NCBI GenBank assembly: GCA_965227295.1
Contig: OZ245742.1
Location: 5,344,001-5,408,000 of the forward strand
DNA length: 64,000 nucleotides
Direction of reading: 5' to 3'
Source of the DNA: Leptonemataceae bacterium
GTDB taxonomy: Bacteria > Spirochaetota > Leptospiria > Leptospirales > Leptonemataceae
A program made the position numbers and the translations under genes. Shown here piece after piece: positions 16,925 to 39,886 of this stretch. Numbering within the stretch: position 1 is the stretch's first letter; each line of letters opens with the position of its first letter. The notes beneath the pieces were generated by a model. The model saw only the letters and a list, made by a program, of their open reading frames with translations, had not been told where the DNA came from and made no database searches.

Positions 16925-17007
16925 GATTACACCTTAGCCTGTCCGAATTATTCGTAAATCGTTTTTCCGCCGCGTTGGCCGGGAAGAATACAAGGCGGGA
17001 TTTTTTT

Positions 17008-17121
17008 GGGCGTTCCCCCGCGCTACGCGCGGGGTCGGGCTGCTACAGGCTCCGCCTTCGGCTACGGTCTCACGAAGACGCGAGACTCGCGCTAACGCGC
17101 GACCTTCCGCATCCCTAACGC
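17008..17121. repeat. Dispersed structured non-coding element, copy 1
   Basis: GGGCGTT-[CCCCGCGC/GCGCGGGG]-TCGGGCTGC...GCATCCCTAACGC; same scaffold as 27316-27433 and the reverse complement of 31781-31908. Confidence 0.8.
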
Positions 17122-17164
17122 GAAGAGCTTTCATACGCCGCATCACCCCAACCATGTCCCTTCC

Positions 17165-17189
17165 CTCTGTGTTCTCTGTGCCTCTGTGG
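17165..17189. repeat. Short 9-bp-period repeat (CTCTGTG x3)
   Basis: ctctgtg-tt-ctctgtg-c-ctctgtgg just downstream of the ileS stop. Confidence 0.7.
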
Positions 17190-17200
17190 CCAAAGGAGTT

Positions 17201-20542
<3,342 letters not shown>

Positions 20543-20792
20543 ATGTCTCCTGGCCGACACGGAGTCGGGCGAGATGAGGACCAGGACACCGGGGGCGGGT
20601 GCGGCCATCAAGTAGAATGCCCGCGCCCTGCACTTAGAATGCGGTGAAACGACTAATTCTCTCGAAATCTTTAAAAAAAGAATTGCCCGAATCGTGCAAG
20701 CGGTGAGTACTATCGCCGCGCGCACAGGTCGTGCGCCCGCACGTACGCAACGTACCGTTGACCACCACAAGGACTAAGTAAGGAGCGCTTCT

Positions 20793-21275
20793 TTGAGCTA
20801 CGATAGACATGCAGCCAGGGCCTTTGTCGAGTTACGCTTCGGCCCCAAATGGACCTATATTTCCACGGTTCGGACCTTTATTCAGAACTTCCTGGCCATT
20901 ACCCTTGAAGATAAAATCAAAGCCGACAAGGTTTCCATGGCCGTTAGCGAGCTTGTGGAAAACGCGGTGAAGTATTCAAACCAGGAAGACACCTTCCTCC
21001 GGCTGGAAGAACCGCCGGATCGCAACTCCATCGAAGTTGTTGTATCCAACAACGCCGAAGCGGACCAGGCGGAATCCCTGCTGAAGTTCGTCTCCGAAAT
21101 GGAGGAGCTTCCCCCGCTCGAAGCCTACATGAAAATGATGCGCTTGAGCGCAGAACGACAGGACGGCAAGTCTCAGTTGGGCCTCGCCCGCATTCGTTAC
21201 GAAGCAAACGCGGAACTGAACGTCACCTTCGAAAACGGACTGGTGACCATCCGCGCCAAATTCAATCTCTCCTGA
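20793..21275 (+). CDS. GHKL-type anti-sigma/Ser kinase-like protein (slr1658/SiaB-like)
   Basis: N-box VSELVENAVKY and G2-like SQLGLARI; TTG start after an AAGGAG RBS. Confidence 0.7.
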   Translation: MSYDRHAARAFVELRFGPKWTYISTVRTFIQNFLAITLEDKIKADKVSMAVSELVENAVKYSNQEDTFLRLEEPPDRNSIEVVVSNNAEADQAESLLKFVSEMEELPPLEAYMKMMRLSAERQDGKSQLGLARIRYEANAELNVTFENGLVTIRAKFNLS

Positions 21276-21308
21276 GCGGAGAAGGCATAATCCGGAGATA
21301 CCATAACA

Positions 21309-21695
21309 ATGAGCAAACTGAACGTAGAGAATCTGAAGCTGGACAAGGTTTCGATCACCGTGTCCGACAGCCAGGACGCGGCCGAGGTGAAGCTGGTCGG
21401 TGAAATCGACGTCGAAGATCCGAGCCAGGAAATCAAACCGTTCCTGAACAAACTGCACGAGGCCATCATCGGCGCTTCGTTTAAGTCCGTGAACGTGGAC
21501 TTTCTGCAACTCAGCTTCATGAACTCAAGCGGCATCAAGGAACTCGTCAACTGGATCATGAAAGTGAACGTCCTGCCGCCGGATCAAAAATACAAAATCA
21601 ATCTGATCTACTCCAAGAGCATTACCTGGCAGGTATCCAGTCTGCCCGTTCTTCAAAAACTGCACCCGGACGTCGTCGAAGTCAAAGAAGTCTGA
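21309..21695 (+). CDS. STAS-like protein (slr1659-like)
   Basis: VDFLQLSFMNSSGI..W and SKSITWQ..SL..L; GGAG RBS. Confidence 0.7.
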   Translation: MSKLNVENLKLDKVSITVSDSQDAAEVKLVGEIDVEDPSQEIKPFLNKLHEAIIGASFKSVNVDFLQLSFMNSSGIKELVNWIMKVNVLPPDQKYKINLIYSKSITWQVSSLPVLQKLHPDVVEVKEV

Positions 21696-21726
21696 GGCTT
21701 CCGGCGGCGTTCCCACCGCACCTTTC

Positions 21727-23373
21727 ATGACGGACCCGGACGTTATACAGGAGCAGAAACCCGAGGTTTTTTCTGACATTCTGAAGAAAGCCAATGTCGG
21801 CCTTCTTCTGTATGACGGCCGGCGGCGACTTCTCTACGCCAACCAGTTCATGTTCGAACTGACGGGATATGCCCCGTCGGAAATCCTCGAAACCGGCTTC
21901 TTCGAACTTGTTCTCGATAGCGATGAAGAAGTCGAAAGTTATCGCGAAAAGCTGGATCTCACCGACCGCGAACCTCCATACGATTTTGATCTTGCCATTC
22001 AAAAGAAGGGCGGCGAGAAGATCGATCTCAACATCACCACTTCCCTTTTCGAAAACGAGGTCGATCCGTACCTCCTGCTGATCGTTCAGAACATTACGAA
22101 TCGCAAGGCCTTCGAACGCGTCATCGTCTCCAGTTTCGATAAGTTCATTCAGACCACCATTGAACTGGACACGGCGCTCAAGAAGATCCGCGATCAGAGC
22201 CGCGTCCTCGAAAACTACAAGGACAAGATCCAGAACGAACTCATGATCGCCAGCAGCGTCCAGCGCGCGATCATCCCGCAGCAGTTTCCGTCGACGGACA
22301 CCCTCGACATGTACGGCGTTTCGTTGCCGTGCAGCGAACTGGGCGGCGACTATCTCGACATCTTTCGCCTGGAACGCAATCGCCTGGGCATTCTGCTTGC
22401 CGACGTCTCCGGCCACGGCGTCCACGCGGCTTTGATCTCCGCCATGGCCAAGGTCTACTTCGTGAACTACAGCCGGCTCTACGCCGATCCGGCTCACGTC
22501 CTCGCGCGTGTGAACGCGGACCTGGGTAAGATCTTCAAGGGCACCGGCTTTTATTTGAGTGCCGTCTACAGCGTACTCGACCTCGATACCATGTCCATTC
22601 GCACGGCGACGGCCGGCCACGAGAACCCGGTCTGTTACATGGGCCAGAGCGGCGAACTCGTGCGCATCGGCAATCTGGACGGCGGCGCCATCCTGGGCAG
22701 CCTCGGCCCCTCGGAAGTCTACTACAAGTCCGCTACGAACCAGTTGGAGATCGGCTCCACGGTCGTCTATTACACCGACGGCATTCCCGAGGCGCGCAAC
22801 AAACGCCAGGAGTTCTACGGCGAGGAACGCCTGGAAACCTTTCTGAAAGAGAACTACTATCTCTCGGCCCAGGAGTTCGCGGACAAGATCCTCGAAGACA
22901 CGGACCGTTTTTATGAAGGCGCCGAACCCAACGACGATCGCACGTTGATCGTGTTGCACGTGACGAAGATGCCCACGGTCACTGCCGCGAAGGATCGCAT
23001 GGATTACATCCGCGAACACTTCAACACCGGCCAGGGTCTGCTGGACCGCAGCAAGTACGAAGACGCCATCGAAGAATTCGAAAAGATCCTCAGCCTGGAT
23101 CCGGAGTCTTTTCGCGCGCATCATTTCCTGGGACGTTCACTCTCCGGCCTCAAACGTTTCGAGGAGGCCGAGGATCATTTCCGCCAGGTCGTCGAGCTCA
23201 ACCCGGACTACTACCAGGGCTACTATCAGCTCGGCATCGTGCTTTACAACCAGGGCAAGTATCGCCACGCACATCGGGTCTGGACGACGTTACGCGAAAA
23301 GGCCGGCGAGTTCAAGAAAGTCAACGACTACCTGGCCATGGTGAACGCGCGCCTGAACGGTAACGGCGACTGA
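21727..23373 (+). CDS. PAS - PP2C (SpoIIE/RsbU) phosphatase - TPR protein
   Basis: PAS (YANQFMFELTGY); PP2C motifs GGDYLD, ADVSGHG, YTDGI and NDDRT; C-terminal TPR repeats. Confidence 0.9.
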   Translation: MTDPDVIQEQKPEVFSDILKKANVGLLLYDGRRRLLYANQFMFELTGYAPSEILETGFFELVLDSDEEVESYREKLDLTDREPPYDFDLAIQKKGGEKIDLNITTSLFENEVDPYLLLIVQNITNRKAFERVIVSSFDKFIQTTIELDTALKKIRDQSRVLENYKDKIQNELMIASSVQRAIIPQQFPSTDTLDMYGVSLPCSELGGDYLDIFRLERNRLGILLADVSGHGVHAALISAMAKVYFVNYSRLYADPAHVLARVNADLGKIFKGTGFYLSAVYSVLDLDTMSIRTATAGHENPVCYMGQSGELVRIGNLDGGAILGSLGPSEVYYKSATNQLEIGSTVVYYTDGIPEARNKRQEFYGEERLETFLKENYYLSAQEFADKILEDTDRFYEGAEPNDDRTLIVLHVTKMPTVTAAKDRMDYIREHFNTGQGLLDRSKYEDAIEEFEKILSLDPESFRAHHFLGRSLSGLKRFEEAEDHFRQVVELNPDYYQGYYQLGIVLYNQGKYRHAHRVWTTLREKAGEFKKVNDYLAMVNARLNGNGD

Positions 23374-23473
23374 ACGGCAAATTTTGCCTGTACCGCTGAT
23401 CGCACGTGCGAACACGTCGGATCATGCGGATCCTTCGTTATTGTTTGCGCGTCACGGCACGCGTTCGATGAAG

Positions 23474-24214
23474 TTACGAAACATCATACTCAAAACCTAC
23501 TACGCCCACGTCCCGGGCCCGCAACGCCAGCGCTCCCGCGTATCCCGGTGCCGGGTCCAGATCCAATAACGTCCACTCGTCCTCGCGGAACTCCGGCTTC
23601 GCGAACCGCACGAAGCGCGCCTCCCGCTCCGGATGCAGCTCCACCTCGAATTCGTCGAGGGGTTGATTCAGTCCCAGGCCGATCGCTTTGATGAACGCCT
23701 CTTTGCGAGACCAGGCGAGAAAGAAACCGCGCACACGCAACGCGTCCGGTAGCGCCTTCCAGGTATCGAATTCCCCGGGCGCGAACTGCATGCGGGCAAT
23801 GTCGGTCATGGAATTCGGATCGCCGAAGTCACGCTCGCGCTCCACGTCCACGCCCAGTTCCTGCGCCGCCACGGCCAACAGGGCCAGCTCCGCGGAGTGA
23901 CTGAGATTGAAAGACAGGGCCCCATCGTCGAGATAGGGCTTGTCGTACTCGCCCGTACGAAAGCTGAGTTCCCGCGGATCGCGGCCCAGATAACCACCCA
24001 GGATACGTCGCTTCGCGGCGTGCGAAACGATGTAACTGCGGCGGTCGCGCTCGAAGACAAAGGCGTCGGCCTTGCGCCGTTCGGCGTCGTTTAGATCCTC
24101 GCGTATGAGTCCCGCATCGCCGCGAGCCAGATCGATCTTCCACACGTGCACGCCGGCCCCCAACTTCGCACGCAGGCTTGCGAATGATTCTTGCGGCGGA
24201 GCGTTCCAGAGCAT
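23474..24214 (-). CDS. 4'-phosphopantetheinyl transferase (Sfp type)
   Basis: KP, FNLSHS, LGVDVE, WSRKEAFIKAIGLGL. Confidence 0.93.
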   Translation of the reverse strand: MLWNAPPQESFASLRAKLGAGVHVWKIDLARGDAGLIREDLNDAERRKADAFVFERDRRSYIVSHAAKRRILGGYLGRDPRELSFRTGEYDKPYLDDGALSFNLSHSAELALLAVAAQELGVDVERERDFGDPNSMTDIARMQFAPGEFDTWKALPDALRVRGFFLAWSRKEAFIKAIGLGLNQPLDEFEVELHPEREARFVRFAKPEFREDEWTLLDLDPAPGYAGALALRARDVGVVGFEYDVS

Positions 24215-24506
24215 ACTTTCGCGACGGCACTTCTCCGTTTGCCGAAGAATCGAAATGTGCCGATAATTATAGAAGAAATAGGATTGACCGTAGATGGGGA
24301 GGCCCGGAAGCTGGCAATTACCCTCTCTACTGTACTGAACTACTCAGTATCCCCGATCAACGTATATTCCCCTGATTTCAAACAAAAATTATAATCAGGT
24401 ATAGTTTCGTTTAAAGCCCGGCGTTGCCGGCCGCCGCCGCAAGCGTGCGTTGTTTGCATCTTCGCCCCTGGCGCAGATGATCCATTACAGAGGAACGGTT
24501 AAGAGC

Positions 24507-27269
24507 ATGTCACAACAGGTTACGGATAACGAAGTCAAGAATCCCATCGCCGAAAAAGCGATTCAACAGATCAACGAAGAGAAACTCGTCAAGGATCTGA
24601 GTAACCTCCAACTGAGCCGCCTGAAGGCTTTCGATGAACTCGCGGAAGAAATCCACGGCGGCGGTGATGCCGGCAAGGACAGCCGCGCCCTGCTGGAAGA
24701 AAACCTGAAGGAATCTCCGTCCTCTCTCGTTTCGCGCTACGTCCTCGGCAGTCTGGACATCCTCGAACAGGGCGAGGACGCCGAGGGTCGCATGCGGTCC
24801 CTGCTCTCCGAGTTTCAGAAGAGCGGCAAGTGGACCCTGGTCGATCACCTGGCCGACAAAATCCTGGAGGTCGACGACAAGAACCGCCACGCCCTGCGCG
24901 CCAAAGTCGAATCCACCGAACGCCTGAAGGGCAAAAAGGAACTGCGCCCGTACCTCGAACGCCTGGCGCGCATCGACCGCAAGAATCCCGACATCGTTAA
25001 GAAATACGCCCTCTCGATTCTGGAAGAGGAACCCGAGCAGGCCCTCCAGTACTTAAAGCAGGCCGGCGAAACCTACGCCCGCCTCAAGGACTACAAAAAC
25101 CTCGAGGAAATCTGGAACCTCATCGTCGAACACGATCACAACGATCTTCCGTTCTTCGAACGCCTCGAACGGATCATGGTGGGCAACCGCGAACGCACGC
25201 GCGTCGCCGCCTACCTCGTAACGCTGGTGGAACCGTTCAAGGCCGAGGAAAACTGGCCCGCGGTCATCACCATCTTAAAGAAAATCCTCGAATACGAACC
25301 CACGTCTTCCCGCGCCCGCTCGGACCTGGTTCGCGCCTATCGTGCGCAGTACGAGAACCACAGCCTGCTCGCCGAGTTCCTCAAGATGTCGGATCTCACG
25401 AACCACAAGAAGGCCGTGGGTCCGTGCATCGCCTCGTTCGAACGCAACATAGTCTTCGACAAAGACAACTACGTCTACCACCGCACCCGCGGCGTGGGCA
25501 AGATCCAGGAGATCGATAAGGACCAGGTCATCGTGGACTTCCGCGATAATCCCGGCCAGCGCATGTCGATTCAGATGGCCATCTCTTCGCTGCAACCGCT
25601 CATGGAAGATCACATCTGGGTGCGCTACTACGAAAATCCCGACGAAGTGAAAGAGATGTTCGAACAGGACGTCCCGCTCTTCTTCGAAACACTGCTCTCT
25701 TCTTTTAAACATAAGATGGTCATCGCCGAGATCAAAGTGGAGATCGTGCCGCGCTTTCTCGAAGCGAGCGCCTGGTCGCGCTGGTGGTCCAAGGCGCGGA
25801 CCCAGTTAAAGAAAGACCCGAAGTTCGGTTTCAACCCGCGCAAGAAGGACGAACTCGTCCTCCGCGAAACTCCGATGACGCTCTCCGAAGAAATGTCCCT
25901 GCGTTTCCAGAGCACCAACGACTGGAACAAACGCCTGGACATCGCGCTGGATACCCTCAAGGACTCCGATACCGAAGGCGCGGCCGAACTCTGCGTGCAG
26001 TTCTACCGCGAGAACGAAACGAACAAAGACGCGCTCAAGCAACTGCATTCGTATCTATTCCTGGAACTCGCCGGCCAGGCCATGGGCGAAGACATTACCG
26101 GGCGCAAGTTAAAGAAAGCCCACGTCCAGGACGTCTTCAAAAAGGCCGACGCGAAAGAACTGGTGCGCTGGTGCGCCGAAACGCCCATCGTGGAGTTCAA
26201 GCGTGAGATGGTGAATCTCATCATCCACAACCGCGAAGACTACACCGAAATCCTGAAAGAAATCCTCTTCGAGGTGCCCATCAAGATCAACCGTTACGTA
26301 CTGAACGAGCTGAACCGTCTGGGCCAACACGAAACCCTCGCCGCCTTCCTCAAACGCACGTTTCAGAAGTACCGCGACTACCCGGAAATCTTCCTGTGGG
26401 CCGCGAAGTCGATTCTCGGCGGCACGTGGACTCACGAATGGATCACCCAATCGAAAGAAGAAGTGATGCTGCGTGTCTTCCGTCTCCTGAAGCCGCTCGT
26501 GAACATCGAGAAGAAAGGCACGCGCCAGAAGAACAGTGCGCTGGAAACGATCTTCGGCTCCACGAACATTACCGTGGAAGGCCTCATGGAAAACGAGACC
26601 CTCGTCGAAATCGTGAAGAACGCCGACGGCTCGACCCTGCGCCGCATGTACGCCCTCTTCCGCGAGGTCCCGTACGCGGCGGACGCGCACAAAGAAAACT
26701 TCCTGGCGTTCATTCAGGAATTGCACCCGGACTTTTCGATGGAGAGCGCCGAGGACGCCGACGACGACTACGAGGACGAAGAAGAGGAAGACCTCTTTCC
26801 GCCGGCGGACGTCATTCTCGTTTCGCCCATGGCCCTGGAAAAACGCCGCGCGTATCTCGATCACCTGATCAACGTCGAAATGCCTTCGAACTCCCGCGAC
26901 ATCGGCGAGGCCCAGGAGAAAGGGGACTTGCGCGAGAACGCCGAATACAAGGCGGCCATGGAGAAACAATCCCAGCTCCAGGCGGAAATCAAAAACGTCA
27001 GCGAAGAAATCAAGAAGGCCCGGGCCCTGCGCAAAGACGAAATCCGCGACGACGTCGTTTCCATCGGCGTGCGCGTGGAACTGAAAAACCAGTCCGGTGA
27101 GGACCTGGCCTATACGATCCTCGGCCCCTGGGACGCGGACACGGAGAAGATGATCATCTCCTACGCATCGCCCCTGGCCCAGGCGCTCATCGGCAAGAAA
27201 GCCGGTGAAGAAGCGAAACTCGAAGACGGCCAGACGTTCAAAATCGAAAGCTTCGCGCCGTTCTTATAA
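24507..27269 (+). CDS. greA: Transcription elongation factor GreA with large N-terminal extension
   Basis: C-terminal GDLRENAEYKAA and YTILGPWDAD..ISYASPLAQALIGKK; ~750 aa helical N-terminus. Confidence 0.92.
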   Translation: MSQQVTDNEVKNPIAEKAIQQINEEKLVKDLSNLQLSRLKAFDELAEEIHGGGDAGKDSRALLEENLKESPSSLVSRYVLGSLDILEQGEDAEGRMRSLLSEFQKSGKWTLVDHLADKILEVDDKNRHALRAKVESTERLKGKKELRPYLERLARIDRKNPDIVKKYALSILEEEPEQALQYLKQAGETYARLKDYKNLEEIWNLIVEHDHNDLPFFERLERIMVGNRERTRVAAYLVTLVEPFKAEENWPAVITILKKILEYEPTSSRARSDLVRAYRAQYENHSLLAEFLKMSDLTNHKKAVGPCIASFERNIVFDKDNYVYHRTRGVGKIQEIDKDQVIVDFRDNPGQRMSIQMAISSLQPLMEDHIWVRYYENPDEVKEMFEQDVPLFFETLLSSFKHKMVIAEIKVEIVPRFLEASAWSRWWSKARTQLKKDPKFGFNPRKKDELVLRETPMTLSEEMSLRFQSTNDWNKRLDIALDTLKDSDTEGAAELCVQFYRENETNKDALKQLHSYLFLELAGQAMGEDITGRKLKKAHVQDVFKKADAKELVRWCAETPIVEFKREMVNLIIHNREDYTEILKEILFEVPIKINRYVLNELNRLGQHETLAAFLKRTFQKYRDYPEIFLWAAKSILGGTWTHEWITQSKEEVMLRVFRLLKPLVNIEKKGTRQKNSALETIFGSTNITVEGLMENETLVEIVKNADGSTLRRMYALFREVPYAADAHKENFLAFIQELHPDFSMESAEDADDDYEDEEEEDLFPPADVILVSPMALEKRRAYLDHLINVEMPSNSRDIGEAQEKGDLRENAEYKAAMEKQSQLQAEIKNVSEEIKKARALRKDEIRDDVVSIGVRVELKNQSGEDLAYTILGPWDADTEKMIISYASPLAQALIGKKAGEEAKLEDGQTFKIESFAPFL

Positions 27270-27315
27270 TTCGGGCCCCCGAATCAAAAGGGCGAATGCC
27301 GGGTAATTCTTTTTT

Positions 27316-27433
27316 GGGCGCCCCCGCCGCCTTCGGCGGCGGTCGGGCTGCTCCGGGCTCGCTATTCGCTCGTTCCTCCGCGCGTTGCGCTACGGAATTG
27401 CGCCTTCGGCGCAACCCTGCGCATCCCTGGCGC
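27316..27433. repeat. Dispersed structured non-coding element, copy 2
   Basis: GGGCGCC-[CCGCCGCC/GGCGGCGG]-TCGGGCTGCTCCGGGCTC...GCATCCCTGGCGC. Confidence 0.8.
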
Positions 27434-27515
27434 GAAGAACGAAGTCCCGCCAACTCTCATCTTTTGCTGGACAAACCGATAAACTCTTTAGATTATCAGG
27501 TCCGGTTCGCAAACG

Positions 27516-29303
27516 ATGCGTAACATCCTTTCCACAAACATTACGTCTCCCCTCTTCCGCTCGGTGACCTCGGTGTCTCGGTGGTTGATCTTTCTTTCCC
27601 TCACGGCACTCACGATACCGGCCTACGCTCAGTTCGGCGGCCTGCTCGATAACGTCACAAAGTCCGCCGAGGACAGCGTGAAGGCGTCGGCGAAGTCCCT
27701 CGAAGATTCCGCGAAGAAAACCGTCGAAGACACGCAAAAGCAACTCGAGGACAGCGCCAACAAGGCCGTCGACGACGCGAAAAAACAGGTCGAGGCCACG
27801 CAAAAGCAACTCGAAGACCAGGCCAACAAGGCCGTGAACGACGCGAAGAAGCAGGTCGACGACGCGCAAAAGAATCTGGAACGCCAGGTCCAGGAGACGC
27901 AGCAGCGCGCCATCAACGCGGCGACGCAACCGTTGAACGACGCCACCCGCAGCGTCAACGAAAGTATCCAGAAGAACACCCGCGGCCTGGTGCCCGGCGT
28001 GCGTCTGGATACCGGCAACTCCGGCAATCAGTCGCAGCCGGCGGCGAGTACAAACAGCAATCAAACTCAGCCGACCGGCAATGCGGACAATCGCTCCACC
28101 GCCGCAGGCAACAAGCGCGGCAATTCTCGAACGACGGACGATTCCGGTACGGTGCGCGGTGACAATCGTCGTCCGACTTCCACGCGCAGCACCGGCAGTA
28201 ACTCCGGCGGCAACGCGGGCAACAGCACTGCTGCCGAAACGGAAACAGAAACGGCCACCGAAACCGACGAACCGATCGATGCCACGGGTTTCGGTGACGC
28301 CGACGTCGCCGGCTTCGTAGATCCGATCATCCGCCGGTCCATGCAGCGCCACAATACGCCGGGCAGCGTCGTCTGCCTGGTGCAAAACGGACGCGTCTAC
28401 TTTTTGCGCGGCTACGGCTACGCCGACGTGGCGGATCGGGTGCAGGCGGATCCGTGGCGCTTGCGTTTTCCGGTGGGACAGATCTCGTCGGTCTTCACCG
28501 CGGCGGCGATCCTGCAGTCCCGGGACCGCGGACTCCTGGAACTGAACACCCCCGCGCGCTACTATCTGCGCGAGACGCTGCCGCGCTACGACGGTCGGCG
28601 CATCACCATAGAACATCTCCTGGAACGGCGTACCGGCTTCGCCCCGCTCCGGGACAACGGCGGCGTGGAAAACCGCAATCTGCTTAAGTCACTTTCAGAC
28701 TATGTTTACGAGCGGCGCCCGCGTTTGAACTCCCGGGACACCGGCCCGTCGGACTACGAGATCGGCGTTCTGGGCTACATCCTGGAACGCAAATACCAGA
28801 GCAGCTTTGCCGATCACATGCGCCGCTCGTTTCTTTATCCCCTGGGCATGCGCAACAGCACGTTCGACCACCTGGAGGACGACGATCGCACGGCGAAGTC
28901 TTATCGTTTCAGCAACGGGAGCTACACGAAACTACCGGAACTCTACTACTCTCCCGCCCCGGCCCTCGGTCTGCGCACCAGCGCCGGCGACATGGCGCGC
29001 TTCATGGCCATGCTGCTCGACGACGGCCTGCTCGGAACGGTGCGCATCCTCAATCCCGACAGCATCCGACGCATGCTGCCGCCGTCCGAGGCGGGTACCG
29101 AACGGCGCTTCGCCTACGGCCTCGAACCCTTCCAGCGCGGCCGGGCCCGCGGCTACATCCGCCGCGGTTCGCTGAGCGGTTACGCCGCGGTGATGGTCCT
29201 GTTGCCGGAACGCAAGGCGGGCATCTTCATCGCCCAGAACAACTACGCCCCGGACATGTACGAAACAGTGATGCGCTCGGTCATCGACGAATTCTTCCAG
29301 TAA
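27516..29303 (+). CDS. Secreted beta-lactamase-fold protein with degenerate active site and LEA-like N-terminal repeats
   Basis: Signal peptide (AYA-Q), 11/22-aa repeats, low-complexity linker. The C-terminal fold motifs GYGYAD, ITIEHLL and PLGMRNS are present, but QISS replaces SxxK. Confidence 0.8.
   Translation: MRNILSTNITSPLFRSVTSVSRWLIFLSLTALTIPAYAQFGGLLDNVTKSAEDSVKASAKSLEDSAKKTVEDTQKQLEDSANKAVDDAKKQVEATQKQLEDQANKAVNDAKKQVDDAQKNLERQVQETQQRAINAATQPLNDATRSVNESIQKNTRGLVPGVRLDTGNSGNQSQPAASTNSNQTQPTGNADNRSTAAGNKRGNSRTTDDSGTVRGDNRRPTSTRSTGSNSGGNAGNSTAAETETETATETDEPIDATGFGDADVAGFVDPIIRRSMQRHNTPGSVVCLVQNGRVYFLRGYGYADVADRVQADPWRLRFPVGQISSVFTAAAILQSRDRGLLELNTPARYYLRETLPRYDGRRITIEHLLERRTGFAPLRDNGGVENRNLLKSLSDYVYERRPRLNSRDTGPSDYEIGVLGYILERKYQSSFADHMRRSFLYPLGMRNSTFDHLEDDDRTAKSYRFSNGSYTKLPELYYSPAPALGLRTSAGDMARFMAMLLDDGLLGTVRILNPDSIRRMLPPSEAGTERRFAYGLEPFQRGRARGYIRRGSLSGYAAVMVLLPERKAGIFIAQNNYAPDMYETVMRSVIDEFFQ
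27731..27880 (+). repeat. 66-bp coding tandem repeat (~2.3 units)
   Basis: cacgcaaaagcaactcga at 27731 and 27797; partial third unit at 27863. Confidence 0.85.
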
Positions 29304-29430
29304 GAACAGTCTTTCGCCGCGAAAATTCCACTTACCGGAACGCCTGCGACAAACCGGCCAATCATATAAATCAAAACACGAACGATCACACTATTTTGCT
29401 TTCTCGTTCTTCCCCCGGAGTCAGCATGAC

Positions 29431-31413
29431 ATGGTGAAGTACTTCGCTGCTCTTGTGATCACTGCGGCCGCCCTGCTCGGAGCCTCCTGCCGCCAGGACA
29501 CTTCCTGCCTGGCCATCGACATTGAATGCAATCCGTTCCTGGGCCTCGCCTGGTCTTACATTCCCCCGCCGGTCATTGGAGACCCGGCCCCGGTTTACGC
29601 GAACGCAACGAACATCAACGATTACATCAGCAACGACGGCACCGGACCGACGACGGCCACGGGAACTGCGTGCAACACCGGCGGCAACGGCTACAACGCC
29701 TGCCTGCACGGCGCCTTCCTGCGCACCGCCGCCATCGCGAGAGCGGTTTCGTGCACGGGGCTCACCATCGCCGATGATCGCAACGTCCTGGAGTGGGTCT
29801 GCGACGACAGCGCCGGAGTCGTCCGGGCCGTATCCCTCGGATTAAAACCGGGCGTCGGACTCGCGGACCTCATCGACTTCAATACCCTTAGCTTTCATCC
29901 GCTGCAAATTACGCTTTCGCAAAACGGCACCGCCGTTTCGACGAGCGACAGCAGCGTGTTCTGGATGAATCCCATCGTCGTCGACAACGACGGCATCGGC
30001 TTCGGCCAGGCATCAAGCGGCACCATCAACGTCGTCACCCAGTCCACGAACGCGCTCTACGCCCTGGACGTGGAGCGCGCGGCCCTGGTCATGCAACCGG
30101 GATTCACCATGTCCGGCACCGTGGCCGGCAGTGAAACGATCATCCAGGCCGCGGCGGCGAATCATCTCTGGGTGGAAGTCAGCGTCGACCTGACCGGCGA
30201 CACCACGGGCATTCTGTTCAGCGCCACGAATTTTTCGGTGCTGCGCAACAGCTCCGTAAAGAACTGCACCGCCGGCCTGAACGTTACGCAGTTCACCAAC
30301 TCCGCGCGCAGCAACTACATCAGCGGCCTGCGCATTGCCGAGCCCGGTAACTGTAGCTCGGTTCAACTGGACAGCGGCGCGACCTACAACACCTTCGAAC
30401 GCATTGTCGTCGGCAACGGCAACACCCTGCTCGCTCGCCTCCAATCGCCGGCACCGTTCAACAGCTTCATCGATTTCACCGGCTTCGCCGCCGGCGGCAA
30501 CCCCGTGACCAACATCGGCGGCAACGATCTGGTCCTGGTCAATGCGACCCTGGCCGCGTCCGGCAGCCGGGGCTACGTGGCCACCGCACCGACGCACCTG
30601 GTCCTCCAGAACGTGGCGACTACGAACCACGCCTTTCACGGCGTCGAGTCCAGCAGTCCCGGTAACAATACCGTGGTAAACCTGGCCTCGGCGAACAACA
30701 CCCAGCTTGGCATAAACCTGAACACGTCATCCAACAATCAGTTTCGCGGCGTTCTGAAAACAGGCAACAATCTCGGCGGCCCCTGCGGAGTCGCCGGCGG
30801 CACGGCGCCGGGCCTCATCAGTCTCACGTGCACGGACAGCGGCGCGGACGGTTCCAGCAGTTACACCGGACAGAACTCCGACGCCGTCTTTACGAGCACG
30901 CTCGATTTTAGCAGCGGCGTATTCATCGGTCGCGTTACGAGCGACGACGCCGCGAACACCCAGGACGGGAACGGCCTCTTGCTCTGGGACTCGCTCACGG
31001 ACTTCCTGACGTTCGATAACCGCTACCGCGCCTGGGCCCAGGAAACCACGGGCATTACCGACACGAACCTGCGCACGGCGTGTTCCTCGGGATCGAACTG
31101 CCGCATCTACGACTGGTCCTTAAGTTCTTCCGATACACAGTTACGCAACGTAAATGCGATCGTCACGAACAACGGCACGACCACCCATACGTTCAGCGAC
31201 GGCAGCACCGCCACGTTTCTTACGTTCGCCGCCGAAATCCTGGGCGACTCCACCGGCAATGAAAACGGCCTGTGCGAATCGAACGAACGCTGCCTGTATT
31301 CGCCGAACATCGGCTCTTACCAGGGGCATGGCGACGTCAGCGAAGTCGGCACGGTGGCCGCGGACAGCGTCACGAACGTGACGTTGTACCAATACGCTAC
31401 GAACGGAAGATGA
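29431..31413 (+). CDS. Large surface lipoprotein, probable parallel beta-helix
   Basis: Lipobox-like LGASC; Asn/Ser/Thr/Gly-rich repeats (NNTVVNL, SSNNQF); Cys-rich C-terminus (GNENGLCESNERCLYSPNIG). Confidence 0.75.
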   Translation: MVKYFAALVITAAALLGASCRQDTSCLAIDIECNPFLGLAWSYIPPPVIGDPAPVYANATNINDYISNDGTGPTTATGTACNTGGNGYNACLHGAFLRTAAIARAVSCTGLTIADDRNVLEWVCDDSAGVVRAVSLGLKPGVGLADLIDFNTLSFHPLQITLSQNGTAVSTSDSSVFWMNPIVVDNDGIGFGQASSGTINVVTQSTNALYALDVERAALVMQPGFTMSGTVAGSETIIQAAAANHLWVEVSVDLTGDTTGILFSATNFSVLRNSSVKNCTAGLNVTQFTNSARSNYISGLRIAEPGNCSSVQLDSGATYNTFERIVVGNGNTLLARLQSPAPFNSFIDFTGFAAGGNPVTNIGGNDLVLVNATLAASGSRGYVATAPTHLVLQNVATTNHAFHGVESSSPGNNTVVNLASANNTQLGINLNTSSNNQFRGVLKTGNNLGGPCGVAGGTAPGLISLTCTDSGADGSSSYTGQNSDAVFTSTLDFSSGVFIGRVTSDDAANTQDGNGLLLWDSLTDFLTFDNRYRAWAQETTGITDTNLRTACSSGSNCRIYDWSLSSSDTQLRNVNAIVTNNGTTTHTFSDGSTATFLTFAAEILGDSTGNENGLCESNERCLYSPNIGSYQGHGDVSEVGTVAADSVTNVTLYQYATNGR

Positions 31414-31444
31414 GAGTTTTCGGTACCCGTCCAGATTTCGCCTT

Positions 31445-31960
31445 ATGCGCGGCGAAGAAGAAAAGCAACCGAGTATCTGGAGTCACGTTTGCGGCAACCA
31501 GCTTCATGAAAGCGATCCGAATCGTGCCGCATATCGCACAGAAGAGCCGGTCCAGCGCCGTCGATTATCGAACCGCCCGCAGCCCCGCCTATGCAAGAAG
31601 TCAACGGCGGCGCAAAGCCGTTGAAGAAATCTTCGGCTGGCTGAAGTCGATCGGTCTGTGCAGGAAGATGCGTTTTCGCGGCCCGCACCGCGTCGGGTGG
31701 ATTTTCCGCTTCGCTGTTGCCGGATTAGAAACCTGGAGTCGCCAGCCGCGTGATTGCAACTATTAACTTGAGAATATTAAGCGTTAGGGATGCACAGAGT
31801 GCCGCACAGCGGCAGTCCGGAGCGCGAAGCGCGGAGGACCGAAGCGAAGCGGAGCCCGGAGCAGCCCGGCGCCCGGCCGGCTTCGCGGCCCGGCCGGGCG
31901 CAACGCCCAAAAGAATATCACTGGTTCCGCTTTCGAATGACTTTTTCAGCAGTCATCTAG
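31445..31960 (+). mobile_element. Internally deleted IS5-family element remnant
   Basis: The ATG at 31445 gives MRGEEEKQPSIWSHV (typical transposase N-terminus). It is followed, out of frame, by the C-terminus VPHIAQ..YARSQRRRKAVEEIFGWLK..RKMRFRG. An end-like GACTTTTTCAGCAG..CTAG lies at 31939-31960. Confidence 0.75.
31781..31908. repeat. Dispersed structured non-coding element, copy 3 (inverted)
   Basis: The reverse complement reads GGGCGTT-[12-bp stem]-CGGGCTGCTCCGGGCTCC...GCATCCCTAACGC. Confidence 0.8.
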
Positions 31961-32471
31961 CCGGGGCGTGCTGTGATGGACCTGCCCCGGGTTCCACGAC
32001 ATTGCGAATATAGTTCATCGTGGCAGGCCCTGCCAGAACCCGGGCCTGCCCCGAAGAATCCAGAATCAGTGCCAACGGCAGAGTCCCGTCCCAGGCCGGA
32101 TACAGACGGTGCGCGGAGCACAGGGCATGATCATCCGGGCCGCAACTCCTTAAGTTCGGAGCATTTTCGCGGAAGATACGGCGCGCAGAAGCTTCGTCCC
32201 GATGGTCGGCCAGGACGGCGAGCACCGCCACGCCGTGGTCTCGCGCCAAATCACGATGCCGTGACAGGATATGGAGTTCTTCGAGGCACGGCCCGCACCA
32301 GGTAGCCCAGAACACAACCAATAGTTCACGCATGCCACTGTCCGCTTTCGCCAGCGCCAGCAGAGCATCGTGGTCTTGCGGGGTCAGTCGCAACGTTTCC
32401 TCATCGGCCGGCCGGCAGACCGGGAAGATCGTCAACAGCAGGAGCAAACCCCAGGGTCGGAGTACCTTCAT
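31953..32471 (-). CDS. TlpA-like thioredoxin-family disulfide reductase
   Basis: VVFWATWCGPCLEE, cis-Pro motif TLP, signal-like N-terminus; ATGA overlap with the kinase stop. Confidence 0.85.
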   Translation of the reverse strand: MKVLRPWGLLLLLTIFPVCRPADEETLRLTPQDHDALLALAKADSGMRELLVVFWATWCGPCLEELHILSRHRDLARDHGVAVLAVLADHRDEASARRIFRENAPNLRSCGPDDHALCSAHRLYPAWDGTLPLALILDSSGQARVLAGPATMNYIRNVVEPGAGPSQHAPAR

Positions 32472-33631
32472 TGCCGAATTCCCTTTCCTTGAACCGGGAT
32501 TTCTGTTTTCCGTCCGTCTTTCCGGGCCACGGGAAGGCTGATCCGGAAGATCGTGCCGTGACCGGGCCGGGATTTGAAACTGATGTTGCCGCCGTGAATT
32601 TGAGCGATCTTCTTGCAGCTCGCCAGACCGATGCCGGTGCCCTCGTACTCTCCCACGCCGTGCAGGCGCTGAAAAATTTCGAACACGCGCGCTGCGTAGG
32701 CCTCTTCAATGCCAATGCCGTTGTCTTCGACCTCAATGTCGACGAGGCCGTCTCGCCCGGCCGGTACGGCGCGAATCCGGACCACGGGGGGAACGTTTCG
32801 GCGAAACTTAATCGCATTGGCAAATAGATTCTGAAAGAGTATGCGGATCAATGACGCATCGCCGTGAATCTCCGGCAAGGGCCCGACCTCCACATCGGCA
32901 TCGGTAGACTTTAAGGCATGGCGAAGATCACTGAGCGCGGCTTCCACGGCTTCCCGCAGGGAAAAATCCTGCATGGGCTTGCGACCCCGGCCCAGACGCG
33001 AATACGCAAGCAAATCATCGATCAGGGCTCGCATGCGGGCCAGACCACTCCGGATGAATTCAACATACTGGATCGTCTTCTCATCGGTGGCCTGCTTGTG
33101 GCGCTCCACCAGCAGATCGACAAAGCTACCGACGGTGCGCAGCGGTTCCTTGAGGTCGTGCGAGGCGACGTAGGCAAACTGTTCCAGTTCGGCGTTGGAC
33201 TGGCTCAGTTCCGTGTTCGCCTCCGCCAGCTCCACGTTTGCCTGCGAAAGCTGGCGCGGACTGGGGACCCGCAGGAGGTGTGGAATCAAGGGCCACAGGA
33301 GTATCGCGGTGGCGATGGACAGGACTGCCGTGAGTGCCTTCAGCACACCCTCCGCACGATAGACCGGATTCCAGAGCACGAAGATGTTTACAAAATGGTT
33401 GATGCCGCACGCTACAATGAATAGCGCGAACAACCATAGCGGCCACCGCACTTCCAGGTCCGATCGACGCACGGCAAAGTATACGAGTGCGAACGGAATC
33501 GAAAGATACGAAAGACCGATGGCCGTGTCCGAAACGACATGCAGCCAGAGAATCTCCGGCAGCCACATGTAGCAGTGCCCGTGGGGCATGAACTGTTCCT
33601 GCTCCAGTAAACGAAAAAAGAAATCCATCAT
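32468..33631 (-). CDS. Sensor histidine kinase with ethylene-receptor-like TM domain
   Basis: FMPHGHCY..SDTAIGLSYLSIP..FIVACGINH N-terminal domain; H-box ASHDLKEPL, N-box NLFANAIKF, G1 DNGIG, G2 GTGIGL. Confidence 0.88.
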   Translation of the reverse strand: MMDFFFRLLEQEQFMPHGHCYMWLPEILWLHVVSDTAIGLSYLSIPFALVYFAVRRSDLEVRWPLWLFALFIVACGINHFVNIFVLWNPVYRAEGVLKALTAVLSIATAILLWPLIPHLLRVPSPRQLSQANVELAEANTELSQSNAELEQFAYVASHDLKEPLRTVGSFVDLLVERHKQATDEKTIQYVEFIRSGLARMRALIDDLLAYSRLGRGRKPMQDFSLREAVEAALSDLRHALKSTDADVEVGPLPEIHGDASLIRILFQNLFANAIKFRRNVPPVVRIRAVPAGRDGLVDIEVEDNGIGIEEAYAARVFEIFQRLHGVGEYEGTGIGLASCKKIAQIHGGNISFKSRPGHGTIFRISLPVARKDGRKTEIPVQGKGIRQ

Positions 33632-37015: not shown

Positions 37016-39550
37016 ATGAATGAATTCGGCCTGAACGAACTGGGCGCCCTGGTCCTCCTGCTCTCGGGTGCCGTCGTAATTTTTTCCATACTAATGGCGC
37101 TGCTCGGAATGTCCCTGCCCCTGGAACGCAGCCTCAGCCGCTCACTGATCCTCGAGGTCCTCGACCGCGGTCGGCGCGGGCGGGGTTCCCTGGCCCACGG
37201 CTTCGCGCGTTCCGTGCTGGGCATCTGGCGGCCGGTCAAGCTCGCGATCTTGCGACACAGCGGCATCGGCACCCAGGCCATGGCCCTGGAACTAAGTCGC
37301 CGCGCCTTCTACGTGAACCTCTCGTTGGCCGGCCTGGCCATGACGATCCTGTTCAGCCTCATGTGGATGAACGATCTCACCAACATGTACGTGGCGAACC
37401 ACTCCTCCGCGGACCTGCCGGTCTTCTTTCGCATCACGGCGGCCTGGGCCGGTTCCAGCGGATCGCTGCTGTTCTGGTACTTCCTGCTCACGTTGTTTAC
37501 GGCCGTCGTCATCTACCAGACGCGCAACAAACTCTTCAATCGCCTGCCGGCGCTGTTTCTGATCTTAGGTACACTTCAGTTATTGTTTGTACTGCTGAAT
37601 CTCTTTTTCGAAGACGCGCAACCCTTTCGAGAGTACCAGGCCGAAGTCCTGGCCGGCCGGGGCATCAACCCGCTGCTGTTGCACTGGGCCATGATCATCC
37701 ACCCGCCCATCCTCTACGTCGGTTACGTGAGCTTCGCGATTCCCTTCGCCATCGCCATGGCCGCCGTCATCTCCGGCAATCTGCGCGACGACTGGTTGCC
37801 GCTCATGCGCCGCTGGTCGATCTTCGCGTGGTTCTTCCTGGGGACCGGCATTCTTTTAGGCAGCAAGTGGGCCTACGAAGAACTCGGCTGGGGCGGCTAC
37901 TGGGCCTGGGACCCCGTCGAGAACGCGTCGCTCATGCCCTTCTTACTCGCGACGGCGTTCCTGCATTCGCTCATCGTTCAGGAACGTCGCGGCATGTTGA
38001 AGTTCTGGAACGTCATCTTAATTACCGCCGCCTATCACATGTGCCTCACGGGAACCTGGATCACACGCAGCGGCGTGCTTGAAGGACCGCACTCATTCGC
38101 CGAGTCCACCATCGGCACACCGATGATCGTCTACATCCTGGTGAGTTTCGCCTTTTACATGCGCTACGTTTACTTCCAGCGCCTGCGACTGCGACCGGAT
38201 CATAAGATGGAGCACCTGACTTCGAAAGAAGGCAGCATGCTGCTCAACAACCTGCTCATGGCCCTGGCCATGCTGGTCGTACTCGTCGGCGTGTTTTCGC
38301 CGTTGTTGCCGCTGGACTGTCGTTTCGACGAGGGCTTCGTCTGTCACAAGGTCGAGTGGAAACAGAGCGCGTACAACAAACTCATGGTCCCCATCGGCAT
38401 CCTGACGCTCTTTCTCATGGGCGCCTCGCCGTTGTTGTCCTGGCGGCGACCGGCCTGGGAAGTCTGGAAAAAGACCCTGCGCTGGCCTGTGCTCGCCGGA
38501 ATCATCGGCGGCGTGGTCTTCGCGCTGATCTACGGCTTTCTGTTCACCCGCGCCGCCGGGGCGGACCGCAGTTCCTGGGGACCAGGCATTTTCGCGGACG
38601 TCTTTTCGATCCTCACCGTGGCCGTGGCCGTCTTCGTCATCGTCGGCCTGGGGATGGAATATCGCCTGGGCGTAAAGTCGCGCATGATTCGCTTCGGCGA
38701 GAACCCGGTCTTAGCTCTCATTCGTTTGATCTTACGCAACAAACGTCGCTACGGCGGATACCTGGTGCACCTGTCGGTGGTGTTTCTGTTCGTAGGTTAT
38801 GCCGGCGGTACCTTTAAGAAAACGGACAAGTTCGAGTTTCATTACGTGCTCACCCCCTGGCATCCGGAAGACGACGCCGTGCGTTACTACAGCGGCGACA
38901 AGGCTTATCTCGAAAACTACGAGATCGAAGCCCGGGACCTCTTTCTCCGCCCCGAGTTCAAAGAACACGCCGATCCGGCGAATCCCGTTTACTTCACCAT
39001 CGCACAGGAAGCGCACTTTCATATTCAGCAGGGCGGTGCAAAACACAGCTACATGCGTGAAGACGAACGCCGGCCCGACGAGGTATCCCCGCTGGCCTTC
39101 GCGAACCGGCCGCATTCCACGTTCGCGAACCTGGTGAAGACCACGACCGGCTACGTCCTGGACGGGCGCATGAAGACCGAACGCCACTTCCATCCGCAGA
39201 TCGATCCGGCTTCCGGCCGGGTACTGCGCGACCGCTCCGCCCGGGCCCGGCACACACCCACGTCCGAGCCGGACATCCGCAGCACCTGGTACGAGGACAT
39301 CTACATTCAGCTTGGCTCCATCTACGATCCGGCGGCCGAAAACAACCCGGACCTCAATCACATGTACGAGTTTTATTACTACGGCAGTGACCGCGGTCCG
39401 GAGATGTACGGCAGCATCTTCCCGCGGACGATTACGGCCACGCTGGAAGTATGGATCAACCCGCTGGTGAAATTCATCTGGCTGGGCTCGGTGTTGTTTT
39501 TCCTGAGCGGCCTGTTGATTCTGTTGCCCTTCGGAGAGCGGGATCTGTAA
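37016..39550 (+). CDS. ccmF: Cytochrome c heme lyase CcmF
   Basis: AAWAGSSGSLLFW, IHPPILYVGY, WAYEELGWGGYWAWDPVENAS, YGGYLVH, NPLVKFIWLG. Confidence 0.95.
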   Translation: MNEFGLNELGALVLLLSGAVVIFSILMALLGMSLPLERSLSRSLILEVLDRGRRGRGSLAHGFARSVLGIWRPVKLAILRHSGIGTQAMALELSRRAFYVNLSLAGLAMTILFSLMWMNDLTNMYVANHSSADLPVFFRITAAWAGSSGSLLFWYFLLTLFTAVVIYQTRNKLFNRLPALFLILGTLQLLFVLLNLFFEDAQPFREYQAEVLAGRGINPLLLHWAMIIHPPILYVGYVSFAIPFAIAMAAVISGNLRDDWLPLMRRWSIFAWFFLGTGILLGSKWAYEELGWGGYWAWDPVENASLMPFLLATAFLHSLIVQERRGMLKFWNVILITAAYHMCLTGTWITRSGVLEGPHSFAESTIGTPMIVYILVSFAFYMRYVYFQRLRLRPDHKMEHLTSKEGSMLLNNLLMALAMLVVLVGVFSPLLPLDCRFDEGFVCHKVEWKQSAYNKLMVPIGILTLFLMGASPLLSWRRPAWEVWKKTLRWPVLAGIIGGVVFALIYGFLFTRAAGADRSSWGPGIFADVFSILTVAVAVFVIVGLGMEYRLGVKSRMIRFGENPVLALIRLILRNKRRYGGYLVHLSVVFLFVGYAGGTFKKTDKFEFHYVLTPWHPEDDAVRYYSGDKAYLENYEIEARDLFLRPEFKEHADPANPVYFTIAQEAHFHIQQGGAKHSYMREDERRPDEVSPLAFANRPHSTFANLVKTTTGYVLDGRMKTERHFHPQIDPASGRVLRDRSARARHTPTSEPDIRSTWYEDIYIQLGSIYDPAAENNPDLNHMYEFYYYGSDRGPEMYGSIFPRTITATLEVWINPLVKFIWLGSVLFFLSGLLILLPFGERDL

Positions 39551-39622
39551 AAAATTGTTAGCAAAATTACGATCACCGCGTCAGTGTGGACTACCATGAT
39601 TCGCCGGACGAGTGCCGTTAGT

Positions 39623-39886
39623 ATGATCCAGAAAATCCTTCAATACTACATCCTGCCGCTGTTGCTGATTGCCGCGCTCCTGCTCGGTTGCGGCTACACC
39701 GATTGCACCGAGGAATCCGACGAACGCGCGACGTGCATCACCCTGCTGTCCGTGGCGGCGCTGAGCCGTTATCCCACCAGTTCTTCGACGGATGCGGAGA
39801 TCGCCCTCTCGTTCCAGACGTCCGCGTCCATCATCCTGCTCGCGCCGTTTATTTGCGAAGAACAGGTGGCCGAGGTTTGCCGCTGA
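39623..39886 (+). CDS. Small Cys-rich lipoprotein
   Basis: Signal peptide ending LLLGC, followed by four more Cys. Confidence 0.6.
   Translation: MIQKILQYYILPLLLIAALLLGCGYTDCTEESDERATCITLLSVAALSRYPTSSSTDAEIALSFQTSASIILLAPFICEEQVAEVCR

Follow-up and report, generated by a model that had tools for sequence, protein, structure and literature searches.

A dispersed family of structurally conserved intergenic elements in a Leptonemataceae genome, a candidate single-strand DNA signal

The window examined here, a stretch of 64,000 nt from the genome of a Leptonemataceae bacterium (Spirochaetota; assembly GCA_965227295.1, contig OZ245742.1, positions 5,344,001 to 5,408,000), raises the question of what kind of intergenic element keeps its fold constant while its sequence changes. 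An earlier note, made from the letters of the window alone, had described three such elements, and had proposed that selection acts on their structure rather than their sequence, that many more copies exist genome-wide, and that they could be a structured single-stranded DNA (ssDNA) or RNA element such as a REP-like HUH substrate (REP, repetitive extragenic palindrome), a single-strand priming signal or a non-autonomous mobile unit. The three elements are located exactly where that note had placed them (the strand given is called the reading strand below, and its opposite the complement):

17001..17127, plus strand: copy 1, core 17008-17121, with a T-run on the 5' side and GAAGAG on the 3' side
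27309..27439, plus strand: copy 2, core 27316-27433, flanked by a T-run and GAAGA
31781..31912, minus strand: copy 3, with a long hairpin A, carried as a passenger in an IS5-family remnant

The genome to which the window belongs is a single contig of 5.94 Mb with 59.8% G+C. An iterated nhmmer search seeded with the three copies returned 193, then 231 and finally 233 matches in it, bearing out the guess of many copies; only three of the 233 lie in the window, 204 are near full length, and both strands carry about equal numbers. The unit is intergenic, measures about 115-130 bp and has conserved flanks, a T-run 5' and GAAGAG 3'. When the three window copies were folded singly as ssDNA, they adopted one common architecture: a closing stem of 5 bp (P1), a side hairpin (P2, hairpin A of the earlier note), a helix of 13 positions with three conserved mismatches (P3) and, beyond it, a junction with two or three small hairpins, namely the tiny P4 and the larger P5 and P6 (B and C of the note). 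Alignment and folding thus recovered the stems described previously, and with them the double compensatory change by which the closing stem reads GCGTT/AACGC or GCGCC/GGCGC; the GGGCTGC/GCATCCC helix likewise carries the same C.T mismatch in all three copies.

Covariation was assessed on 110 copies aligned with MAFFT without reference to structure, on which 32 pairs were assigned by hand, this hand-written structure replacing a Nussinov-type guess that proved noisy (the covariance model built first, R1, contains only 20 pairs). Complementary bases occupy 91.4% of the 3399 cells of the 32-pair structure, compared with 77.0% (standard deviation 0.4) in shuffled alignments and 39-45% when the pairing was slid. 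Changes on both sides occur at 27 of the 32 pairs, with 480 such cells as against 166 in the shuffles, and none of 500 shuffles attains any of the observed covariation measures. These counts are not to be read as probabilities, because the copies share kinship and the structure was derived from them; the gap between the observed pairing and the slid controls is nevertheless large. Individual positions illustrate the pattern: in the same alignment, pair 71-161 of P3 is U-A in 42 copies, G-C in 41, A-U in 11 and C-G in 8, and pair 135-152 of P6 is G-C in 47, C-G in 39 and U-A in 15, while the inner two pairs of P1 vary among TT/AA, CC/GG, CG/CG, TG/CA, TC/GA and CA/TG. Whole complementary versions of a stem are exchanged between copies, so that the fold is constant and the sequence is not, and G.U cells are rare (about 28 of 3399). 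The comparison with shuffled alignments supports the proposal that structure rather than sequence is under selection.

The two strands do not fold equally well. Folded as ssDNA, copies 1 to 3 have z-scores of -2.6, -2.1 and -2.2 on the reading strand; the corresponding values for the complement are -3.9, -3.4 and -3.2. When 172 trimmed copies were folded, it was the complement that reached the lower free energy in 165 with RNA parameters (mean advantage 4.4 kcal/mol) and in 170 with DNA parameters (3.3 kcal/mol). With DNA parameters, 87 of the 172 complements take the canonical shape and a further 36 lack P4 alone. The three P3 mismatches, C.T, T.C and C.T as read, become A.G, G.A and A.G on the complement. 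The hairpin loops of the 172 complements number 599 and include 348 triloops, of which 292 are of the type GNA (GAA 136, GCA 107, GTA 41 and GGA 8) and 319 are closed by C-G; shuffled sequences gave GNA in 17 of 95 triloops, and the remark in the earlier note on frequent TTC loops (GAA on the opposite strand) therefore holds for the family at large. GNRA mini-hairpins are also present on the complement, and P4, with its stem of 2 bp, reads GCGAAGC there, the classic extra-stable DNA mini-hairpin. The scarcity of wobble pairs, the triloops and the 2-bp hairpin would point to DNA rather than RNA, and because of the G.A mismatches and the C-GNA-G and GNRA loops we read the active form as the folded ssDNA of the complement strand. 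The favoured strand and the DNA-type C-GNA-G mini-hairpins count in support of the structured ssDNA or RNA element suggested at the outset, and an active ssDNA form is what they would suggest.

The family extends beyond this genome. R1 matches were found in at least 28 of 151 genomes of the phylum, belonging to at least 11 of 88 genera and including at least 15 of 16 genomes of a sister family. An exact 26-base pattern recurs at at least 80 loci of a species-genome collection; the matches listed are mostly labelled Planctomycetota, and include Spirochaetota, Bacteroidota (among them a Hymenobacter isolate), Deltaproteobacteria/Polyangia, a Methylococcaceae record and a Eubacteriales metagenome-assembled genome (MAG). 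At 72 of the 80 loci listed an upstream 5-base word is complementary to the 3' closing strand, and the two unpaired G residues ahead of this word are conserved in 67 and 56 of the 72. On the complement these would form the CC of a tRNA-like CCA end, an idea that we regard as weak, the final A being present in 38 of the 72 loci listed. P3 also covaries in the copies listed from other phyla, where one pair is G-C in 36, T-A in 17, C-G in 3 and A-T in 1, and another is C.A on the reading strand (G.T on the complement) in 26 of 67. Among these matches from other phyla it is again the complement that folds more stably, in 56 of 67 copies from the genome collection and in 57 of 64 from metagenome contigs. 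Copy number there is low, with at least 1-5 R1 matches per genome in five genomes. Many Planctomycetota-labelled loci (L058, L063, L072, L075, L094, L102, L106, L111, L118, L124 and L130) also have a box, GTCCGCTCGCTGGCAGTCC(C)TCAT, 15-20 nt downstream of the element.

In these other phyla the element keeps particular company. A same-strand open reading frame (ORF) lies downstream of 15 of the 24 elements listed from the genome collection, and the next such ORF is ArdC-like at L163, L164 and L158 (Hymenobacter) and RadC-like at L166 and L157; other neighbours at genome-collection loci are ParB, Rep_3, Tn3, Abi and further defence genes. In the metagenome set listed, 59 of 80 elements have at least 700 nt of downstream sequence, and 54 of these 59 have a same-strand ORF starting within 650 nt. 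These 54 ORFs include six of ArdC-N type, five RadC and one DUF932, and the remainder include three small deaminases, three DDE transposases, two toxin-antitoxin parts and four housekeeping genes. On the mirror side, ArdC or RadC was found in none of 41 first divergent ORFs, as against 11 of the 54 downstream (metagenome matches listed). The element shares the coding strand of the ardC- and radC-like genes and precedes them by 40-630 nt. Three copies of the same orientation stand ahead of separate genes within 6 kb in G176, and several same-orientation copies before consecutive genes also occur in the contig behind L219 and L220. Genes for deaminase-like proteins (cytidine/dCMP) follow the element at L191, L195 and L223, and DDE_Tnp_1 genes at L201, L211, L222 and L180.

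Genes for ArdC, RadC, ParB-like and DUF932 proteins are typical of the first-entering (leading) region of conjugative elements. Since the element is co-oriented with the ardC- and radC-like genes and lies upstream of them, its well-folding strand is their template strand. Passages in two reports describe leading-region genes as arranged so that they are transcribed from the transferred strand, with folded ssDNA promoters (Frpo/ssi) driving these genes and possibly priming second-strand synthesis (PMC11541004, PMC12672017). Our working hypothesis, which we hold tentatively and at a little below an even chance, is that the family is a compact, Frpo/ssi-like single-strand signal that has been amplified in its own genome by a route for which our searches yielded no candidate. 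The complement strand would fold as ssDNA on DNA entering a recipient, the well-folding template strand would be the transferred strand, and the fold would start RNA synthesis, either for the transcription of early genes or for the priming of the second strand. In the genome studied here the element would have left its conjugative context and multiplied as a repeat resembling BIMEs (bacterial interspersed mosaic elements) or REPINs (REP doublets forming hairpins), often inverted and about 50 nt past stop codons. The single-strand priming signal suggested in the earlier note comes nearest to this hypothesis: the position upstream of ardC and radC and the identity of the well-folding strand with the template agree with it, and priming would follow by analogy with the described systems.

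A number of observations weigh against this hypothesis. No -35 or -10 hexamers were visible on reading the conserved helix, by eye rather than by a formal promoter scan, and the element (95-130 nt, about -25 to -44 kcal/mol) is smaller and less stable than the ssDNA promoters described in passages of PMC12672017, which carry -35 and -10 in a long stem and occupy windows of about 300 nt below -75 kcal/mol; because no hexamers were seen and the element is so much smaller and less stable, we do not file it as a member of Frpo/ssi. Of the 54 downstream ORFs, 27 are without a family and others are housekeeping, insertion sequence (IS) or toxin-antitoxin genes, the copies linked to ArdC and RadC may come from a few related islands, and the copy on a Saprospira plasmid sits between ordinary convergent genes. 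The term leading region is applied here on the basis of gene content alone, and the MAG labels behind the phylum assignments can be wrong. In the genome of the window a same-strand gene lies downstream of only 80 of 202 copies, ArdC is absent, and the single RadC gene adjoins no copy, so that the proposed function cannot explain the local copies; with the ardC/radC link gone, their behaviour is that of a repeat of the BIME/REPIN kind. Searches for Y1, TnpB, Y2, integron integrase and reverse transcriptase (RT) genes, which did not extend to relaxases, revealed no copying mechanism. The still wider proposition is that we are dealing with a new phylum-crossing class of compact, branched ssDNA signals of about 100 nt, characterized by this fold, G.A mismatches and C-GNA-G loops rather than by -35/-10 boxes. 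In Planctomycetota, Bacteroidota, Spirochaetota and others, such signals would launch RNA synthesis on the strand that a conjugative element transfers, and in at least one lineage they would have become a self-propagating repeat without a known transposase. We regard this proposition as doubtful.

The local copies lend themselves to a different explanation, in which the element, transcribed at gene 3' ends and for the most part in the complement sense, acts as RNA and forms an exonuclease-protecting, terminator-like or processing structure of the kind proposed for REPs. By gene calls that are crude and were made for this analysis, copies typically lie about 50 nt past stop codons, and divergent regions, which hold promoters, are under-used (34 of 202 copies, as against 486 of 1737 intergenic regions). 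For the 124 unpaired copies the complement version is the one on the mRNA of co-directional gene pairs in 48 cases versus 23, and at 3' ends overall in 62 versus 50; for all 202 copies the corresponding figures are 122 and 94. Folded as RNA, the complement reaches -62 to -71 kcal/mol, and the genes bracketed by copies are ordinary and often highly expressed (flagellin, thiolase, ABC transporter and others). This explanation is the main rival to a single-strand signal and draws modest support from the orientation counts. Both orientations are nevertheless common, the near absence of G.U pairs and the prevalence of triloops and of a 2-bp hairpin would be unusual for RNA, and where the element precedes genes in the other phyla, its well-folding strand runs antisense to them. 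Nor does a U-run follow the fold on either strand, the T-run preceding it and an A-run following it on the other strand; an intrinsic terminator, which would be a GC-rich hairpin with a U-run behind it, was rejected on this ground, and no terminator hairpin was seen ahead of the T-run in the flanks. We consider a role as RNA rather unlikely overall.

Adjacent copies are inverted in 42 cases and direct in 3. Of the inverted doublets, 25 are head-to-head, frequently separated by a conserved AT-rich spacer of about 50-60 nt, and 17 are tail-to-tail with a spacer of 0-19 nt; with their conserved spacers the doublets match the BIME/REPIN pattern. The head-to-head spacers are conserved among themselves (e.g. 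...GCTAACTTATAATGAAGCAATATTTG...) and contain TATAAT-like words; examples lie at chromosomal positions 3764153-3764208, 5814629-5814682, 5328972-5329026 and 5891042-5891101. BIMEs have been reported to take part in the organization of the nucleoid and of supercoiling, and a duplex or cruciform protein-binding site with such a function would fit the mosaics of inverted units and the fairly even spread of copies around the chromosome. Compensatory changes, conserved mismatches and stable loops on one strand are not what such a site would select for, and we know of no protein that binds the element; we regard this explanation as very improbable. Some copies contain, in either orientation, a nested mini-element of about 45-50 bp (GGGGAAC ... 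stem-CGACAAGCG-stem, the stem being variable), as at 5892166-5892316, 3451160-3451281, 4327227-4327348 and 4638185-4638306 and in hairpin A of the IS-borne copies. A shorter motif, CCCCGAAT...GTAAGAT, stands ahead of 28 of 197 element copies, and a second repeat of about 70 nt or more (CACGCCCCGAATCGTGGTGTAAGTGGCGGCCAGTGTACATTAAGCC...GGCTGGTTCCAGC) occurs at many loci of the same genome (e.g. 47843, 52754, 53065, 360862, 508055, 508384, 508771, 830711, 890112 and 1034591).

Copying in this genome has been partly recent. A partner at 97% identity or more exists for 17 of 197 copies, and several pairs at unrelated loci are 100% identical, the identity reaching as far as the T-run on one side and GAAGA(G) on the other, and this T-run varies in length among otherwise identical copies. 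The pattern CGSGCT-N8-CTCCGC occurs 143 times (control 5), whereas two congeners, with about 1-2 copies of the element only, have 12 and 6 occurrences against controls of 3 and 9. Empty orthologous sites, the search for which had been suggested in the earlier note, were found: that of copy 2 in G001 is element-free, in partial synteny, and one locus in a further genus of the order carries the element in G030 and G025 but not in G027. The longest word shared by the two flanks of a copy equals the shuffled control, so that no target duplication was detected, in a test that a fixed target word would escape, and unoccupied TTTTGAAGAG sites show no excess. A DDE-type miniature inverted-repeat transposable element (MITE) was accordingly rejected, the ends of the element being a covarying 5-bp stem with no target-site duplication beyond the shuffled control.

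These traits would also suit a selfish, non-autonomous transposon that moves through an ssDNA intermediate with an HUH-type or other enzyme acting in trans, and whose position upstream of ardC and radC would reflect only a preference for DNA that frequently occurs as single strands. The lineage-specific burst, the sharp-ended identical copies with unrelated flanks, the missing target duplication, the REPIN-like inverted doublets (42 versus 3), the patchy spread across genomes and genera of the phylum noted above and the carriage of seven copies in an IS5-family element all speak for it. The search for an enzyme speaks against it. Y1_Tnp (PF01797) has no match in the genome of the window and matches 2 of 41 relatives (G004 and G040), both without R1 matches, whereas R1 matches at least 29 of the 41, an anticorrelation of Y1 with the element; TnpB was not found in this genome, no integron integrase scored above cut-off, and Y2 transposase gave no match, the control genomes being equally silent. 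RT genes do not correlate with the element. Orientation relative to the replichores is unbiased (62/51 and 45/44), and a cognate enzyme encoded between inverted copies was rejected, since all 26 of the 26 ORFs tested there are housekeeping genes or belong to no family. A phage link was rejected (only two viral contigs match), and for a plasmid link there is one weak match, in an ordinary intergenic site. We therefore find a transposon of this kind unlikely. As regards the earlier proposals, copy numbers and identical copies fit a non-autonomous mobile unit, for which no mobilizing enzyme was found, while the REP-like HUH substrate is left unsupported by the missing Y1 and TnpB and the absence of replichore bias; the linked HUH/Y1 transposase that had been envisaged did not turn up in this genome. 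A link to REP-associated tyrosine transposases (RAYTs) or to IS200/IS605 was rejected on the same grounds and because the genomes that do have Y1 are free of the element.

Other mobile DNA has visited the copies. A class-C-like group II intron of about 1.86 kb, with an Rfam group-II-D1D4-3 match and a 472-aa RT, is inserted at the identical point of two different copies:

L145:767-2630, better-folding strand: group II intron copy near chromosomal position 2020600, by Rfam and RT
L146:767-2630, better-folding strand: group II intron copy near chromosomal position 2367840, by Rfam and RT

The insertion point on the complement is ...CG^CCCA, between G and C and directly after hairpin A. Class C group II introns are known to insert after terminators, and the position of this one after a complement-sense hairpin counts among the points in favour of a role as RNA; the double insertion at one point of the complement strand counts equally among those for the working hypothesis. 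The genome has 10 group II intron RT genes and the two congeners have none; this difference and the variable A-run after the better-folding strand prompted the idea of retro-copying like that of short interspersed nuclear elements, which was rejected because six relatives with at least 13-23 R1 matches have no RT and RT-rich genomes are poor in the element. The sole IS110-family (DEDD) transposase gene of the genome starts 264 nt past one copy (L148, 95117-95983). Copy 3, finally, belongs to an IS5-family setting in the window:

31509..31960, strand not assigned: IS5-family remnant around copy 3, with an inverted-repeat-like end at 31939-31960
31272-31766, plus strand: ORF for a transposase C-terminal fragment (NF033581, E 1.6e-10)

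The remnant is 83-86% identical to intact genome copies of about 1.4 kb, in which the structured element occupies the stretch separating the 3' end of the transposase gene from one of the inverted repeats. The IS encodes a 379-aa transposase and is bounded by 22-bp terminal inverted repeats (TAGCAGGCTGCTGAAAAAGTC); copies lie at chromosomal positions 38226-39631 and near 5237534, 5697398, 4560586, 5147741 and 3451142. Copy 2 has another neighbour of note:

24450-27269, plus strand: GreA fusion gene, 939 aa (NF011309, 820 bits, above cut-off)

Copy 2 lies 47 nt past the stop codon of this gene and is followed by an ORF at 27516-29303 (plus strand); an LvrA-like histidine kinase is encoded at 32468-33631 of the window, and together with the GreA fusion it points to a spirochaete. 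Copy 1 has minus-strand genes on either side and is situated about 75 nt past the stop codon of ileS (17201-20770, minus strand); the transcript of these genes would therefore carry the better-folding complement.

Were the working hypothesis of a single-strand signal correct, an element recognizable by its fold would offer a handle on leading regions and anti-defence genes across phyla. The ssDNA promoters and priming signals known so far come from a handful of enterobacterial plasmids, and the expression of the first genes in other phyla is largely unexplored. The burst to about 230 copies without Y1, TnpB or a linked RT poses a puzzle as to how structured repeats spread, and the family itself provides a clean set of natural examples of how DNA-type hairpins undergo compensatory change.

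Comparison with described families was made at several levels. Rfam 15 gave no match at gathering score on the 64,000-nt window and nothing relevant at E<=10 for copy 1 or at E<=1 for 14 loci from other phyla, so that the objection of an already described Rfam family, foreseen in the earlier note, does not arise. Nor is the family described in the literature consulted on Leptospira repeats and MITEs, GCGAAGC repeats, Planctomycetes REPs, GNA triloops and ssDNA promoters; many MITEs are reported from Leptospirales, in passages that contain no sequence suited to comparison (PMC11602168).

Among RNAs, the Rfam radC and STAXI motifs are structures conserved ahead of genes for RadC, Ssb, antirestriction proteins and integrases. 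Their gene neighbourhood resembles that of the element in other phyla, whereas sequence and fold differ. The attC sites of integrons are likewise structure-defined ssDNA sites with conserved mismatches and variable stems, and likewise targets of class C group II introns; the element was nevertheless rejected as an attC site, since it has no R''/R' core sites, its inner closing pairs covary freely, and there are neither cassette arrays nor an integrase above cut-off. The IS200/IS605-derived PATE differ in that the genome studied here has no TnpA (Y1) or TnpB and shows no strand bias between replichores. With the REP, BIME and REPIN sequences of Proteobacteria the element shares a high copy number, intergenic location at gene 3' ends, inverted doublets and mosaics with conserved spacers, lack of target duplication, and the attraction of IS110-family elements and group II introns. 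A REP is a palindrome of 20-40 bp with a tetranucleotide tag, in contrast to the multi-branched fold of about 115-130 nt seen here; the RAYT (Y1) was not found in this genome or in the element-bearing relatives searched, and the present family crosses phyla. From Frpo/ssi of F, ColIb-P9 and pESBL the element differs in being far smaller (95-130 nt), branched, without visible -35/-10 and located in other phyla, and in forming, in its own genome, a dispersed repeat of about 230 copies unlinked to early genes; an activity like that of Frpo/ssi would be assigned to it by analogy. Like Frpo/ssi, it is a cis element folding on one strand upstream of early anti-restriction and establishment genes, here in the other phyla only; several copies of the same orientation can occur per region, and it is the folding strand that serves the genes as template.

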